Source of the DNA: an uncultured Peptococcaceae bacterium
Lineage (GTDB): Bacteria > Bacillota > Dehalobacteriia > UBA4068 > UBA4997
Direction of reading: 5' to 3'
DNA: 64,000 nucleotides
NCBI GenBank assembly: GCA_965149945.1
Contig: CBCTTQ010000001.1
Location: forward strand, 126,860-190,859
Made by a program: the position numbers and the translations under genes. Positions 4,025 through 45,795 of this stretch are shown here, piece after piece; positions within the stretch are counted from its first letter, which is position 1, and each line of letters begins with the position of its first letter. The notes beneath the pieces were generated by a model, which searched no databases, was not told the DNA's origin, and was given only the letters and a program-made list of their open reading frames with translations.

Positions 4025-4663
4025 ATGCGTTATCAAGGAGTTATTTTCGATCTGGACGGCACTCTTTCCAACAGCGTTCCTTGTATTTTGAAGTGTGCCG
4101 CCTTGACCCACCGCAAGTTGGGATTACCCTGGGATGAACAGGAACAACGCGCTGTCATCGGTCAGCCTTTGTATCAGATTGCCCGTCGTTGGCTGCCGGA
4201 AGAACGAGTGGCGGAATATCTTGCCGTCTCTCGCGGGTTTAATCAACAATATCTGGGAGAAATGGTGGAGCCGTTTCCCGGGATCATTCCTATGCTTCAA
4301 CAATTGCATCAACAGGGGGTTAAACTATGTGTGGTTACCTCTCGCTTGAAATGGGGCGCCGATCTTTCCTGTGAAAAAATCGGCGCGGCACCTTATTTGA
4401 CACGGATCATCGGTGTTGAGGATACCGAAACTCATAAACCGGAACCGGAACCGGCATTGCTGGCTCTTTCTGTCATGAAACTGTCTCCGGAGCAGGTGGT
4501 CTTTGTGGGAGACAGCCCCGTGGACATTCTCTGCGGGCAGCGGACGGGCACCGATACCATCGGCGTAGGCTGGGGTGTTACGCCCGCCGAAAAACTGCGG
4601 GCGGAACATCCGACCTATTATTGCCCTGATGTGGCGGCGCTGTCAAAAATTCTTTTGGGTTGA
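4025..4663 (+). CDS. HAD-superfamily hydrolase (phosphoglycolate/pyrophosphatase PpaX-like)
   Basis: The N-terminal FDLDGTL motif I and a C-terminal GDSPVD motif fit a ~210-aa HAD hydrolase. Confidence 0.8.
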   Translation: MRYQGVIFDLDGTLSNSVPCILKCAALTHRKLGLPWDEQEQRAVIGQPLYQIARRWLPEERVAEYLAVSRGFNQQYLGEMVEPFPGIIPMLQQLHQQGVKLCVVTSRLKWGADLSCEKIGAAPYLTRIIGVEDTETHKPEPEPALLALSVMKLSPEQVVFVGDSPVDILCGQRTGTDTIGVGWGVTPAEKLRAEHPTYYCPDVAALSKILLG

Positions 4664-4782
4664 AGCGCTTCGCTGTATGCTTGAAAGAAAATTGTTTTTT
4701 TTGTGCGGAAAAATTTTCCCAATCGCCGAAAGAATGCCGCCTTTCCAAAAAACGGCGGATGTTCCCTTGGGTAAATATTGTG

Positions 4783-4840
4783 CAAGTACAAAAAGCAGTC
4801 GTATTTTTTTAATACGACTGCTTTTTGTACTTGTGTTTTT
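4783..4840. terminator. Rho-independent terminator, perfect 23-bp stem with T tract (bidirectional)
   Basis: caagtacaaaaagcagtcgtatt-tttt-aatacgactgctttttgtacttg is followed by TGTTTTT. It sits between the HAD gene and the convergent MerR-fusion gene. Confidence 0.8.
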
Positions 4841-5194
4841 GCCTGAAAGTTTTTATGACTGTTTTGTTTCCGATTTCAAGCGCTGCAGCGTCTGAAACTT
4901 GTTTCAACAGGTCGATGCGTCGATATTCATCGGAAACCTTTGTTCCGCTCGGCTTCGCTTTTTTTGAAGGCGGCGACAGGGCGTTTCGCCCGGAAAATCG
5001 AAAAGGCGGCGTTTCGGGCGCGAAAAGTTTTGTTTCGAGGCGGGTTGTTTTTTTAATAGATTGAGATAACTTGCGCGATACGACGAAGAAGTTTTTTCAA
5101 AGACATTTTCGGTATCGAATTCTTCGCGGAAAGATCAGAAAGAACATGCGCGGAAAACAGGGAAATTTTTCTTGTAATCGAGGTATGGGATTTG

Positions 5195-28680: not shown

Positions 28681-29358
28681 TTATTCCGTGTACTCAAATT
28701 TATACCCGATGCCCCAAATGGTTTTGATGCAGCTGCGGTATTCACCGATGTTGCTGCGCAGCATTTTGATATGGGTATCTACGGTACGGTAATCTCCGCA
28801 ATAATCGTAGCCCCAAACATCCGCCAGCAGCTTGTCCCTGGAGAGCACCACACCGGCGTTTTGGCAGAGACAAAGAAGCAGGGCAAATTCTTTCGGCGTC
28901 AGTTCCAGCAGTTTGCCGTCCAGCCAGACATTTCGTCCGTGCTCGTCGATGACCAGTCCGCCGAACACCAGCTTTTCCTTTTTGTCCATGTTGGCTTCGC
29001 TGCATCGTTTCAAAAGAATTTTGATACGGGCGATCAATTCTCTGGGGCTGAAGGGTTTGACGATATAATCGTCGGCGCCCATTTCAAAGCCGTATAATTT
29101 ATCATATTCTTCTCCTCGGGCGGAGAGCATAATGACCGGTGTGCGTTTGGTTTTGCGAATTTCTCTCAGAACGCTCATGCCGTCCAGCTTGGGCATCATC
29201 ACATCCAGCACCACCAGGTCGAAATCATGTTCTTTCAGCAACTCAATCGCTTCAAATCCGTCGGTCGCTTCCATATAATCGTATCCTTCAAATTCCAGGT
29301 AATTGGTGACCACGTCTCTAATGCCGTCTTCGTCGTCGACAACTAAAATTCTTGTCAT
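28681..29358 (-). CDS. OmpR-family response regulator (REC plus winged-helix), no cognate histidine kinase adjacent
   Basis: ILVVDDEDGIRDV...DLVVLDVMMP has the phospho-acceptor aspartate, and a trans_reg_C domain follows. An RBS GGAGGGG lies upstream. Confidence 0.85.
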   Translation of the reverse strand: MTRILVVDDEDGIRDVVTNYLEFEGYDYMEATDGFEAIELLKEHDFDLVVLDVMMPKLDGMSVLREIRKTKRTPVIMLSARGEEYDKLYGFEMGADDYIVKPFSPRELIARIKILLKRCSEANMDKKEKLVFGGLVIDEHGRNVWLDGKLLELTPKEFALLLCLCQNAGVVLSRDKLLADVWGYDYCGDYRTVDTHIKMLRSNIGEYRSCIKTIWGIGYKFEYTE

Positions 29359-29866: not shown

Positions 29867-30430
29867 ATGAAGAAATTTTTATCCGGATCTTGGAAAAAAA
29901 AGTTACTGCTGACAGCGGGGACGGTTTTGATTTTTGCCGCCGCTTGGTTGGGTCGCCCCATGGAGCTGCACGCCGAATCGGAAGTGTTGCAGTCTCTTTC
30001 TCTCACCGATGATTCCGCCGTCGCGGAAGAAGAGGCCGCCCATTGGCAGCCTCTTTTCGCAAGCCCTCTTTCCGGTGTGATCACCTGTCCGTTTGGCTAT
30101 CGGCAAAGCGGCTTTCATCATGGATTGGATATTGCCAACGAATGGGGCACTAAAATCGGCGCCATTGCTGCCGGTACCGTGGTAGAAGCCGGTTGGAAAA
30201 GTTCTGTTTACGGCTATGCTGTTTTGTTAGATCACGGAAATGGCTGGCAAAGTTTGTATGCTCATTGCGGGATGCTGACGGTGGAAGTCGGTGATCGAGT
30301 GGAGACGGGTCAGGTGATCGCCGTTGAGGGCAGCACCGGACGTTCCACCGGTCCTCATCTCCATTTGGAAATCCGCAAAGACGGGGTGTATCTGAACCCG
30401 GCGGATTTGATTGAGGTGCCGTCTGTTTGA
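29867..30430 (+). CDS. M23-family peptidase (LytM domain), secreted
   Basis: A signal peptide precedes HHGLDIA...GYAVLLDHGNGW...GSTGRSTGPHLHLEIR, the HxxxD / HxH Zn ligands. Confidence 0.85.
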   Translation: MKKFLSGSWKKKLLLTAGTVLIFAAAWLGRPMELHAESEVLQSLSLTDDSAVAEEEAAHWQPLFASPLSGVITCPFGYRQSGFHHGLDIANEWGTKIGAIAAGTVVEAGWKSSVYGYAVLLDHGNGWQSLYAHCGMLTVEVGDRVETGQVIAVEGSTGRSTGPHLHLEIRKDGVYLNPADLIEVPSV

Positions 30431-30508
30431 GACGGTGCCTTTTGCCGGCCGTTTTGCGATTTGTGAGTATGAGCGACTTTGCGAAACCGCCCTGGTCTCC
30501 GGTTAAAA

Positions 30509-30537
30509 TTGACTTTTGACCGCGGGTATGTTATCAT
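30509..30537 (+). promoter_or_regulatory. sigma-A promoter (TTGACT-17-TGnTATCAT) for the leader and Mef-like transporter
   Basis: The -35 lies at 30509 and the extended -10 at 30529-30537. Confidence 0.55.
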
Positions 30538-30569
30538 AGAGAAAATTCTGGAGAAGGGGAGGTGGCTTG

Positions 30570-30587
30570 ATGTTGTCTATTCGCTGA
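30570..30587 (+). CDS. 5-codon leader peptide ORF (MLSIR) with a strong RBS, candidate regulatory uORF of the efflux gene
   Basis: AAGGGGAGGTG is followed by 5 nt, then ATG TTG TCT ATT CGC TGA. It is the first start after the transcription start site. Confidence 0.4.
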   Translation: MLSIR

Positions 30588-30856
30588 ACAAGGGACAATA
30601 AAGAAACGAAAATGGGTTTTGCTCATCATTTTGTGATGGGTTTTTTGTCATACTGTTTTGGCGGATAGCTTTATTGAATCGATTTTCTCAAGCGTTTTCG
30701 AACGTTTGTTGTTTTGTGTGCTTTTTATGCCCATGATAGGGAGGAAAAAGAGGCGCCAAAGGCAGTGTGCGGATGACCGATTTTTGTGGGTTGTCTGTTT
30801 TTTTATTGTCCTTTTTAAGAGCAGAGACAGTTTATTTGACAGAAAGGACATAAAAA

Positions 30857-32080
30857 ATGCTTGAGAAAAATAAATGGAAACGTGACTTTCTATTGGTTGC
30901 TTTGGGACAGGCTGTTTCGATGCTGGGCAGCCATGGTGTTCAGTTTGCTTTGATTTGGTGGCTTGCGGAAAAAACCTCTTCGCCGCTGATGTTGGGGATA
31001 GCGGGAATTGTTGCCTGTCTTCCCATGGTTTTGCTCAGTCCGCTTGCCGGCATCGCGGCGGATCGTTGTTCCCGAAAATTTATTTCTGTTTTTTCGGATA
31101 TGGCGATGGGGACAATCGCGCTGCTTTACGCGATAGGGTTAAGCCTGTTTGAATTGCCCGTATGGACGGCGCTGATCATGCTTTGCGCGCGCGGAGTCGG
31201 CAGCGCTTTTCAGCAGCCTGCTGTTCAATCCATCATCCCTCAGCTTGTGCCGAAAGATCAATTGGTCAAGACAAACGGTTGGATGCAGCTTTTGAGTTCG
31301 GGTTCTTTTTTGCTCGGACCGGTTATCGGCGCTTCCTTATATGCTGTTTTTCCGTTGTCTGTAGTTTTGCTGAGCGATGTGATCGGAGCGGCTTTGGCAA
31401 GTATTGCGCTGGGGGTTGTGAAAGTTCCCTCTCTCCCGAAGCAGACGAATTCCGCCAAAGGTAGCTTGGGCGCTGAAATCAAAGAAGGCATTGGGGTATT
31501 CCGGTCAGATCGGCGCCTTTTTTATCTCGTCTTCGCGGAAGCGCTTTGTATGTTTTTTTACGCGCCGCTGGCTTCTTTTTATCCTCTGATGACAAGTGAT
31601 TATTTTCATCGATCGGCAATGTACGGCAGCGCGGTGGAGCTGTCTTTCGCGATTGGAATGATTCTGACATCACTTTTCTTTGCTTTTGGCTGTCAGGTAA
31701 AAAGAAAAATCCGTGTTTCCTTTCTCGGTCTATGGGCAATGGGCGTTATGTCCGCGGTTTGCGGGATCATTCCGCCAACGGATATCGGTTGGTTTTGCTT
31801 CGCGGCGGCTTGCGCCGGTCTGGGCGCCGCGGGAAACATTCACGCGATTCCGCTGACAGCCTATATACAGGAGACGGTCGCTTCTGATAAAATGGGGCGC
31901 GCGTTTTCCGTTCTGACTTTGATTTCTTCCGCCGCCATGCCGATAGGGTTGCTGTTCAGCAGTCCCATCGCGGAACGGGTGGGGGTATCCGCCTGGTTTT
32001 TCATTTCGGGAATTTGTATGCTTGGGCTGACGGCCGCTGTTGTTCTGCGCGCCGTAGCGGCGGAGAAAACACGCGGATGA
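30857..32080 (+). CDS. MFS transporter of the Mef/EntS-like (MFS_3) family, putative macrolide/drug efflux
   Basis: The N-terminus KNKWKRDFLLVALGQAVSMLGSHGVQFALIWWL matches the recalled Mef(A) NWKRKFYAIWAGQAVSLIGS..VQFAIIWWL pattern. It has 12 TM segments. Its SD AAAGGA sits inside a hairpin. Confidence 0.8.
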   Translation: MLEKNKWKRDFLLVALGQAVSMLGSHGVQFALIWWLAEKTSSPLMLGIAGIVACLPMVLLSPLAGIAADRCSRKFISVFSDMAMGTIALLYAIGLSLFELPVWTALIMLCARGVGSAFQQPAVQSIIPQLVPKDQLVKTNGWMQLLSSGSFLLGPVIGASLYAVFPLSVVLLSDVIGAALASIALGVVKVPSLPKQTNSAKGSLGAEIKEGIGVFRSDRRLFYLVFAEALCMFFYAPLASFYPLMTSDYFHRSAMYGSAVELSFAIGMILTSLFFAFGCQVKRKIRVSFLGLWAMGVMSAVCGIIPPTDIGWFCFAAACAGLGAAGNIHAIPLTAYIQETVASDKMGRAFSVLTLISSAAMPIGLLFSSPIAERVGVSAWFFISGICMLGLTAAVVLRAVAAEKTRG

Positions 32081-32233: not shown

Positions 32234-32968
32234 TTATTTATTGTTTTGCCAAACGGCGGAATAATAGCTGATTTTTTGCTGCTTCAATTCTTCTTTGAGA
32301 TGGGCGGGTTCTGCGGCGGAGGCGCAGATGCTTTGCCAAAAATCATCGGGCGTGGCGGCGTTGAAAAGCAACTCCGCCAAAAAACCCAGATATTCTTGCC
32401 TGTGATCGTTCCAGCTCAGACAGGTGAATTGTGCCTGTTCCAGTAGTTTTCGAATTTTTCCTTCTCCCATTAAATTCTGCATGCAGGTGAGAAGCGCCAG
32501 GTGTGGGGGCGGAACATCGGGTGTTTGGCTGTAAAGGTCGCTGAGCAGTAATTTGCCGTGTGGTTTCAGTACTCGGCGGATTTCCGCCAGAACCCGGGGT
32601 TTTTGAGGCAACAGACAAAAGACGCACTCTGCTGTCACCGCGTCAAAGACACTGTCTGCAAAGGGCAGCGTCTCCGCGTCTGCTACTTGCAGCGGCAAAT
32701 GAGGATTTTTCGCTAAAGCCGCCGTGACGGACTCCTTAGCGCAGTCCACACCCCATGCTTTGCAGCCCAAACGGCGCAAAAGCGCCACTGTCTGTCCCCG
32801 TCCGCAGCCTATATCCAGCACACGATCTCCGATGCGGATCTCGGCTTTTTGCAACAGTCCGCGGGTTAACGCCAAGCCGCCCGGCCGCAAAGGGGCTTCC
32901 TCATCCAGACCCAACAAATCCGGATGGTCATAAAGGGTGTTGAGGGGTGTTTGAGAATGGGCGGTCAT
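32234..32968 (-). CDS. class-I SAM-dependent methyltransferase
   Basis: VLDIGCGRGQTVALL is motif I with D...WGVD. The protein is 244 aa. Confidence 0.8.
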   Translation of the reverse strand: MTAHSQTPLNTLYDHPDLLGLDEEAPLRPGGLALTRGLLQKAEIRIGDRVLDIGCGRGQTVALLRRLGCKAWGVDCAKESVTAALAKNPHLPLQVADAETLPFADSVFDAVTAECVFCLLPQKPRVLAEIRRVLKPHGKLLLSDLYSQTPDVPPPHLALLTCMQNLMGEGKIRKLLEQAQFTCLSWNDHRQEYLGFLAELLFNAATPDDFWQSICASAAEPAHLKEELKQQKISYYSAVWQNNK

Positions 32969-45485: not shown

Positions 45486-45795
45486 GTAGAGAACGATTCT
45501 TCCTGCTGTAAGCGGACGATGATCCCGACGGCGGAAGGATTCATGTCGGTTAAAGCGATGAGCAGAAGGTTGTTTTTCGGAAAATTCCCCAGAGAGTCCG
45601 TGGAAGGTGCGAGTCGGACGGATTGGAAAAACAACGATCGTCTGTGAGTGTCTGCCTGAAGTCCATGAGATGTGTAAGGTGGAACGACTGCCCCTCGTTA
45701 CGGGGTCCGGAGTGGTCGCGCGCGCGGCAATAAGGGTGGTAACACGGCTTTTCGTCCCTTGGGGAAAAGGTCGTGTTTTTTATTTTCCTTTGTCG
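45486..45795 (+). promoter_or_regulatory. T-box riboswitch leader (Ile-tRNA sensing) upstream of ileS
   Basis: The conserved T-box sequence AAGGGTGGTAACACGG lies at 45732-45747, followed by a terminator-like hairpin with a T run (~45745-45790). An AGAGA-type stem I element and the position before ileS support the call. Confidence 0.7.

Follow-up and report, generated by a model that had tools for sequence, protein, structure and literature searches.

A conserved leader with a five-codon reading frame ahead of a Mef-like transporter gene: a probable ribosome-dependent attenuator and its relatives in Clostridia

In mef(E)/mel, also known as mef(A)/msr(D), a 327-nucleotide (nt) leader encodes an 8-codon leader peptide, MTASMRLR, that is required for induction, and contains a terminator; dIR1, 6 nt after the stop codon, pairs with dIR2, which overlaps the terminator and its poly-U, and stalling has been inferred at the last leader codon (Chancey et al. 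2015, PMC4335068). The Clostridia system cplR follows another plan, in which a 5' hairpin sequesters a 3-codon upstream open reading frame (uORF) and the terminator stem sequesters the Shine-Dalgarno (SD) sequence, the inducers being pleuromutilin, lincosamide and streptogramin A drugs (Obana et al. 2023, PMC10201436). Here we describe a leader that combines features of these systems in a stretch of 64,000 nt from an uncultured Peptococcaceae bacterium (GenBank assembly GCA_965149945.1, contig CBCTTQ010000001.1, positions 126,860 to 190,859; hereafter the window). It lies between a promoter and a gene for a Mef-like transporter of the major facilitator superfamily (MFS). Positions are those of the window, on the + strand unless noted.

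Our data suggest that this leader is probably a ribosome-dependent attenuator controlling the Mef-like pump. Leader-peptide attenuators of resistance-type genes are a known kind of element; this variant and its family are uncurated. The sigma-70 promoter (TTGACT-17-TATCAT with a TG extension, 10/12 consensus matches; 30509-30537) is the sole promoter-like site within 30200-31100; transcription is predicted to start at ~30544, giving a leader of ~313 nt up to the MFS gene, and matching TTGAC(T/A)...TGnTAnnnT boxes were seen upstream of family leaders. A sequence-only reading of this DNA had listed a promoter, a leader SD and open reading frame (ORF), a hairpin with a T tract and a transporter SD, and had proposed that stalling on the leader peptide induces efflux. 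All of these elements are present in the sequence, and conservation of the ORF together with covariation supports the proposed layout at the level of architecture.

Conserved reading frame and alternative pairings

The leader ORF (ATG TTG TCT ATT CGC TGA, encoding the five-codon peptide MLSIR; 30570-30587) follows the SD AAGGGGAGGTGG (30554-30565), with 5 nt from GGAGGTG to the ATG. Eighty homologous loci retrieved from Lachnospiraceae, Oscillospiraceae and other Clostridia (55-75% amino-acid identity) split into two leader classes with a common SD, GGGAGGTGGC. Class A, to which the window belongs, has a long leader (~290 nt) with the mini-ORFs MSSIR, MSFIR, MSLIR, MSSVR, MSTVR and MLLIC, and class B an 89-nt leader with mini-ORFs of 4-6 codons (MSAAAQ, MSAAVQ, MSAAA, MSATA, MSASVR and similar). 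A scan of metagenomes with the class-A pattern yielded 62 further loci. The mini-ORF is kept in 67 distinct class-A leaders, always with five codons: the ATG is present in 67/67, codon 2 is TCG in 65, and the stop is TAA in 49, TGA in 17, TAG in 1 and never a sense codon. The leader SD GGAGGTGG is invariant in class A, as is GGAGGTGGCTTGATG in 75 family members, and the family peptide consensus is MS[SATFL][IV][RC]. All three stop codons are used interchangeably at its end, and we conclude from these alignments that the mini-ORF is under selection as an ORF and not solely as RNA. Conservation in orthologous loci, on which the sequence-only reading had staked its model, is therefore what the retrieved loci and the 67 leaders display.

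Some loci have lost or altered the leader. It is deleted in L031, a promoter (TTGAC…TATAAT) stands directly upstream instead in L048 and L074, and the mini-ORF ATG has become ATA in L021. These four are candidate constitutive or altered alleles, and natural loss of the leader is as expected of a dispensable repressive element.

Two segments of the leader have alternative partners. The first, seg1 (AAGGGACAATAAAGAAAC, 30590-30607), can pair with the U tract after hairpin T1 (described below) or with seg2 (GTTTTTTTATTGTCCTTT, 30797-30814); seg2 is the anti-SD strand, whose partner can be either seg1 or the SD and start of the transporter gene. In the latter pairing the SD AAAGGA (30843-30848) and start codon (30857-30859), which together span 30843-30859, are sequestered. 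The element GGACAATAAA, reported earlier as standing right after the leader stop, lies at 30593-30602 as claimed; its complement TTTATTGTCC and the hairpin arm TGTCCTTT are also present, each displaced by one position from the earlier placement (30802-30811 rather than 30803-30812, and 30807-30814 rather than 30808-30815). Both complementarities are longer than had been noted, with seg1:seg2 extending over 18 nt (89% complementary, 30590-30607 with 30797-30814) and seg2:SD/start over 15 nt (87%, 30800-30814 with 30843-30857). The transporter SD hairpin of the window folds at -14.2 kcal/mol (z -2.8).

Within MFS-type leaders seg1 and seg2 are nearly invariant (GGACAATAAAAAA and TTTTTTATTGTCC). 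The seg2 run TTTTTTATTGTCCTTTT after hairpin T2 does not vary in 18 such leaders, and TCCUUU(U) of seg2 pairs with the transporter SD in 17-18/18. Across gene contexts the two segments change together: they read AAAAAAGGACAA and TTGTCCTTTTTT in L083, L098, L100, L127 and L137, AAAAAGGACAAC and GTTGTCCTTTTT in L105 and L140, GAACAAT and ATTGTTC in L088 and L097, CGAGACAA and TTGTCTCG in L124, and CGGACAAGAAAA and TTTTTTTGTCCG in L123. In the first two of these sets seg2 includes the 3' arm of T2, and the pairing there is therefore predicted to be a true antiterminator. Covariation of the alternative pairing, the second point on which the earlier model had been made to depend, is found in these joint changes, which argue that seg1:seg2 is a real interaction. 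Class B retains four elements only (the ORF, the seg1:seg2 hairpin, seg2:SD and the SD), its two states being of near-equal energy, and class A looks like class B with an insert of ~200 nt between seg1 and seg2.

The leader as a whole folds far better than expected of its composition (z = -3.96; 0/100 shuffles fold as well). Its minimum-free-energy structure contains the seg1:seg2 helix while the centroid contains the SD-sequestering hairpin, a disagreement that we take as the signature of two competing states. We analysed helices with RNAalifold in 18 MFS-type leaders and by explicit pair counting in 75 5'-modules (72 distinct sequences for helix H2). The 5' module forms a long irregular hairpin, the rod, in which 90.2% of cells are paired, versus 39-55% with the partners slid; RNAalifold independently recovers the rod helices, and when folded alone the 5' module of the window adopts the rod as well (-36.3 kcal/mol, z -3.1). 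A long-range helix with sequence downstream of T1 thus locks up the mini-ORF together with its SD, a feature that the sequence-only reading did not contain.

Helix H2 joins leader codons 3-5 (CTATTCGC, 30577-30584) to strand g (GCGGATAG, 30661-30668), which sequesters the leader ORF; across the family, codons 3-5 (CUAUUCGC) face a conserved GCGRAUAG, with 97.9% paired and compensatory changes at 4/8 pairs. H1 is the helix between strand h (30670-30688), approximately AUCAGGCUGGCUUU in the family, and the leader SD with its start codon; 92.8% are paired, and the changes are pairing-compatible and one-sided only. Strand h of the window is degenerate relative to the family consensus ATCAGGCTGGCTTT, its pairing being that of GGGAGG with UUUCUC. 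H3 joins seg1 to the U tract after T1 (90.7% paired; changes mostly one-sided, both-sided at 2/10 pairs). The hairpin and T tract reported at 30621-30647 correspond to T1 (30621-30641) followed by T6, which folds at -9.3 kcal/mol (z -5.2) and in the family is 77.8% paired with compensatory changes at 3/8 pairs. It lies at the tip of the rod, where it may cause pausing or act as a weak terminator.

Downstream, strand f (CATACTGTTTTGG, 30649-30661) pairs with strand j (CCAAAGGCAGTGTG, 30756-30769) in a helix that is 75% paired, with compensatory changes at 4 pairs; in the 5' module folded alone, strand f pairs with the stop-codon region instead. A small hairpin i followed by a T-rich run (30689-30708) is weak (-6.9 kcal/mol, z -1.8), and a hairpin stands at this position in most family members. 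The second terminator-like hairpin, T2, is stronger than T1 and was absent from the earlier reading. It occupies 30769-30797 (to ~30798 where it overlaps the start of the U run), is followed by U7 at 30798-30804, and folds at -14.4 kcal/mol (z -5.7; whole feature 30769-30804); in the family it is 98% paired, with compensatory changes at 3 pairs.

Three further pairings were considered and set aside. An antiterminator for T1 was sought in the SD/start region, where only a 5-bp match (UGAUG/CAUCA) was present; it was rejected, and none was found. Prevention of T2 by strand g (GCGGAUAG, which resembles the T2 5' arm) or by the leader ORF was rejected because the local T2 is stronger and a helix of g with the T2 3' arm would still abut the U tract. 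In the window, 30683-30698 (TTTTCTCAAGCGTTTT), the rod partner of the leader SD, is 94% complementary over 16 nt to 30854-30869 (AAAATGCTTGAGAAAA), which holds the transporter start codon and codons 2-4. This duplex reaches -20 kcal/mol (z -7.2) in the window and a mean z of -0.65 in the family, and was rejected as a family mechanism because it is not conserved there.

A long, well-structured leader with conserved helices and a variable central domain might also be expected of a ligand- or protein-binding RNA, or of a small RNA of ~100 nt released by termination at T1, with the mini-ORF being incidental. We consider this very improbable. An incidental ORF would not account for an invariant ATG and SD and a stop kept across all three stop codons, nor for a short-leader class that has dispensed with the central domain yet keeps the ORF, seg1, seg2 and the SD. 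No conserved unpaired pocket was seen, and the mutually exclusive helices account for the conserved bases. The leader matched no Rfam family: no hit reached the gathering threshold for the window leader or in 8 related loci, and at a permissive threshold 30400-30900 gave microRNA noise only (E > 5).

The proposed switch

Conservation, covariation and mutually exclusive pairings emerge directly from the computation, and they fit a switch with two states. In the OFF state, with no ribosome on the mini-ORF, the first ~135 nt of the transcript would form the rod. The leader SD and start codon would be held in H1 by strand h, codons 3-5 in H2 by GCGGAUAG, and seg1 in H3 by the U tract after T1. Seg2 would be left with the transporter SD and start as its sole partner, blocking translation, and T2 with U7 may additionally terminate transcription. 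The ON state would arise when a ribosome is arrested within the first codons of the mini-ORF. Its presence there would melt H1 and H2, freeing seg1 to pair with seg2 and exposing the transporter SD; in relatives whose seg2 overlaps the T2 3' arm, seg1:seg2 would also break the terminator. H1 and H2 cross seg1:seg2 topologically, and the two sets of helices are therefore mutually exclusive.

The position of seg1 suggests which ribosomes would be read. The distance from ATG to seg1 is kept at 21-25 nt in the 67 distinct leaders. A ribosome at codons 1-3 would have a footprint ending just short of seg1, and one that runs on to the stop codon and terminates would cover seg1 and leave the switch OFF. 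The likeliest signal would be an antibiotic that acts on the ribosome and halts translation of the mini-ORF at initiation or directly afterwards. In MFS-type leaders control is probably mainly translational because seg2 spares the T2 stem, and termination at T1 or T2 is a prediction of the folding.

Constrained folding of 42 members, in which a footprint centred on codon 2 masks the mini-ORF, is consistent with this scheme. In the ribosome-free case the rod is favoured over seg1:seg2 by 10.0 kcal/mol on average (38/42 members); masking the mini-ORF lowers this margin to -1.2 kcal/mol, with 25/42 members then favouring seg1:seg2. Plain minimum-free-energy folding with footprints was ambiguous in some members, and we used paired-state differences and ensemble accessibility instead. 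Ensemble accessibility of the SD was computed for 32 leaders picked as MFS-type, of which L086 and L109 were later seen to be mis-assigned. The predicted value was 0.24 for the ribosome-free leader, 0.41 when a ribosome stood at codon 2 and 0.27 when one stood at codon 5 (paired Wilcoxon p about 7e-5 and 8e-5). The corresponding values for the window were 0.01, 0.11 and 0.00.

Several observations weigh against a ribosome-dependent attenuator. The anti-SD:SD helix, on which repression would depend, shows invariant positions or one-sided changes only, and the T2 stem precedes seg2 in MFS-type leaders, so that seg1:seg2 is no classical antiterminator there; T1 likewise has no antiterminator that we could find. 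The peptide carries no known arrest motif, R/K-x-R/K included, and since codons 3-5 are constrained by RNA pairing its identity may matter little. The window copy has almost no predicted switch (-2.6 kcal/mol without and -1.6 kcal/mol with a ribosome), which we attribute to the divergence of its strand h, and predicted SD accessibility in several members is unchanged by masking the mini-ORF. More generally, each functional step of the switch, ribosome stalling and the identity of the inducer among them, is one that we infer from sequence and folding.

The loose constraint on the peptide beyond M-S also suits a different signal. The mini-ORF might read general translational capacity (initiation rate, ribosome availability, starvation or (p)ppGpp), with cargo devoted to physiological export or stress. 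The presence of any ribosome on the ORF would be enough to melt both H1 and H2. The heterogeneous and largely uncharacterised cargo of the family (below) agrees with this. Such a sensor seems improbable to us, however: the mini-ORFs contain no runs of one regulatory codon, unlike amino-acid attenuators, and the nearest characterised relatives and analogues are all antibiotic-induced. A very strong invariant SD and a fixed ATG-to-seg1 spacing also fit the ruler of a stalled ribosome.

Relation to mef/mel and other attenuators

The window leader resembles that of mef(E)/mel in its general plan, as a leader of ~320 nt between a sigma-70 promoter and a Mef-family gene, with a short ORF and consensus ribosome-binding site near the 5' end, and seg1 and seg2 correspond to dIR1 and dIR2 (PMC4335068). 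The resemblance goes deeper than the analogy that had been proposed. In a real mef(A)/msr(D) locus fetched for comparison (L143), the leader reads TAA-GCT-GGCAATAAAAAAA, a hairpin, TTTTTTGTTGTGCTTATTT, a terminator and ATTTTTTATTGCC. The blocks GGCAATAAAAAAA, hairpin, TTTTTTGTTGTGCTTATTT, terminator and TTTTTTATTGCC stand in the same order in the mef(A) leader and in the window family, and TTTTTTGTTGTGCTTATTT is an identical 19-nt run shared by L143 and the family member L063. The seg1/seg2 pair co-varies between the two, being GGCAAT/ATTGCC in mef(A) and GGACAAT/ATTGTCC here. A covariance model built from the 75 5'-modules aligns full-length to L143:290-440 with 21.2 bits (E ~1e-3 over 102 kb; 3e-5 within the locus), a score that a probable chance site matches. 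That site, window 4747-4878 (+), scored 21.6 bits with low posterior probability; it was rejected as a leader copy, as it is probably an ordinary terminator hairpin after the ORF at 4025-4663. The covariance model alone therefore does not settle homology. Taken with the ordered blocks, these comparisons suggest that the window leader and the mef/mel attenuator are divergent relatives, that of the window having a shorter mini-ORF, no RLR and no msr(D).

The differences from mef(E)/mel are nonetheless considerable. The peptide is MLSIR, of five codons, rather than MTASMRLR, and lacks the RLR macrolide arrest motif; no msr(D)/mel lies downstream; seg2 in the window covers the poly-U, lies 3' of the terminator stem and doubles as the anti-SD; and the element is chromosomal in gut Clostridia.

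The transporter gene (30857-32080, 407 amino acids) has as its best family matches NCBIfam Mef(A) (E 1e-82) and Mef(B) (3e-78), with EntS at 7e-9. The scores fall far below the curated cut-offs (278 of 675 bits for Mef(A), 264 of 800 for Mef(B) and 245 of 320 for TIGR00900), and identity is 37% to Mef(A) and 36% to Mef(B) across 96% of the transporter length. The domains MFS_1 (PF07690, 109 bits) and MFS_3 (PF05977, 49 bits) match over the full length. With Mef(A) scores so far under the cut-offs and 37% identity, we classify the protein on sequence grounds as a Mef-family relative and not as Mef(A); drug efflux is its putative function.

The resemblance to mef(A)/msr(D) invites the view that the leader is a macrolide sensor of the same type. 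A macrolide-bound ribosome would then stall as it reaches the last codons of the mini-ORF, when its P site contains Ile or Val and its A site Arg, and the pump so induced would export macrolides. The ordered motif blocks held in common, the Mef(A) match of the cargo and a similar spacing from last codon to seg1 speak for it, as do the hydrophobic-Arg-stop ending of both peptides (L-R-stop and I/V-R-stop) and the last-codon stalling inferred by Chancey et al. (PMC4335068). We regard it as possible but doubtful. The first basic residue of R/K-x-R/K is replaced here by S, A or T, and the short-leader class includes a peptide without any Arg (MSAAAQ). With a ribosome at codon 5 the footprint covers seg1, and no improvement in SD accessibility is predicted. 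An msr(D) partner is missing, and the same cassette also drives RNHCP, GNAT and RibD_C genes, which have no known macrolide link. An attenuator that responds to a ribosome arrested on the first codons remains our preferred reading.

That reading also draws on attenuators of other resistance genes. The uORF attenuators of ARE-ABCF genes (cplR, vmlR, lmo0919/vgaL, lsaA; PMC10201436) have a very short uORF, of 3-4 codons as against 5 here. As predicted for the present leader, a 5' hairpin hides the uORF in the repressed state, a poly-U terminator is accompanied by sequestration of the main-ORF SD, and transcriptional and translational attenuation are combined. They differ in cargo, which here is MFS, RNHCP, GNAT or RibD_C rather than ABC-F, and in the uORF itself (MSxIR here; MRI, MIN and MAGN there). 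No sequence similarity to the ARE-ABCF attenuator leaders was seen, and the window leader would work like cplR-type attenuators without being a member of that group. With the translational attenuators of erm, cat, cmlA and fexA it has in common a leader ORF and alternative hairpins that hide the SD of a resistance gene, and the class-B short leaders are purely of this type (ORF, seg1:seg2 hairpin and seg2:SD). The window leader departs from that type in having three competing segments and a long-range helix that sequesters the uORF, in place of the classical 1:2/3:4 arrangement or a single hairpin, and in a much shorter peptide with no known arrest motif.

Genomic setting and distribution of the cassette

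In the window the MFS gene is monocistronic. The leader is preceded by an M23 peptidase gene (29867-30430, +) and an OmpR-type response regulator gene (28681-29358, -), and the MFS gene is followed by a convergent methyltransferase gene (32234-32968, -). No sign of a mobile element was seen beside the transporter gene, and blastn of the leader against plasmid and phage collections gave no match. The leader occurs once only in the window, where we likewise found no homologue of RNHCP or GNAT. An unrelated T-box leader (RF00230) at 45549-45762 (+) scored 95.7 bits, above its gathering threshold.

The cassette precedes more than transporters, a point absent from the sequence-only reading. An MFS gene follows only ~20/62 of the metagenomic leaders. 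The commonest cargo is an operon of two paralogous RNHCP-domain (PF12647) zinc-ribbon proteins, found in L095, L098, L105, L127, L137, L140 and ~30 other metagenome loci (in L095, for example, 398-1193 nt past the leader), and in several of them the partner of seg1 is the 3' arm of the terminator itself. We found no solved relative of the RNHCP proteins and, in the library searched, no literature on them. GNAT N-acetyltransferase genes (NCBIfam PRK10562-like, 130 bits) follow the leader in L088, L090, L094 and L097, and RibD_C/DHFR-like genes in L108 and L133, whose leader looks like an MFS-type one with its transporter gene replaced. Since varied genes stand behind the same cassette, it appears from these arrangements to be a modular sensor serving several outputs.

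The minimal 89-nt class-B leader (e.g. L002:2892-3009) was present in 40 loci (L002-L043 and others). It is almost identical across Blautia, Mediterraneibacter, Butyricicoccus, Intestinimonas, Sellimonas, Anaerostipes and more genera, and near-identity across so many genera suggests horizontal spread. Upstream of it in L020 lies a MarR-type protein, as judged by eye from the translation, and L014, L021 and L031 looked alike. Tiny MPAK/MSAK ORFs ~420 nt upstream in class-B loci were rejected, as they were judged to lie inside the MarR-like gene in another frame, a judgement that rests on the sequence of one locus and an assumed protein length.

We tentatively suggest that the MS[SA][IV]R cassette could mark an unrecognised regulon of gut Clostridia that responds to translation inhibitors, in which the peptide would sense a non-macrolide class, the RNHCP operons would represent a new class of resistance or tolerance to ribosome-targeting drugs and the Mef-like pump would be one inducible output. 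The modularity of the cassette points to the RNHCP operons, GNAT and RibD_C genes as candidate translation-stress responders. Natural variation in the mini-ORFs should be useful for studying ribosome arrest by very short nascent peptides and drugs.

Our analysis thus identifies a conserved, uncurated family of cis-regulatory RNAs in Clostridia that are abundant in the human and animal gut (Lachnospiraceae, Oscillospiraceae and others), a family that probably ties the clinical mef/mel attenuator to a wider and older set of leaders with different mini-ORFs. The cassette probably makes the Mef-like pump inducible, and such a gene would seem silent in standard susceptibility tests.

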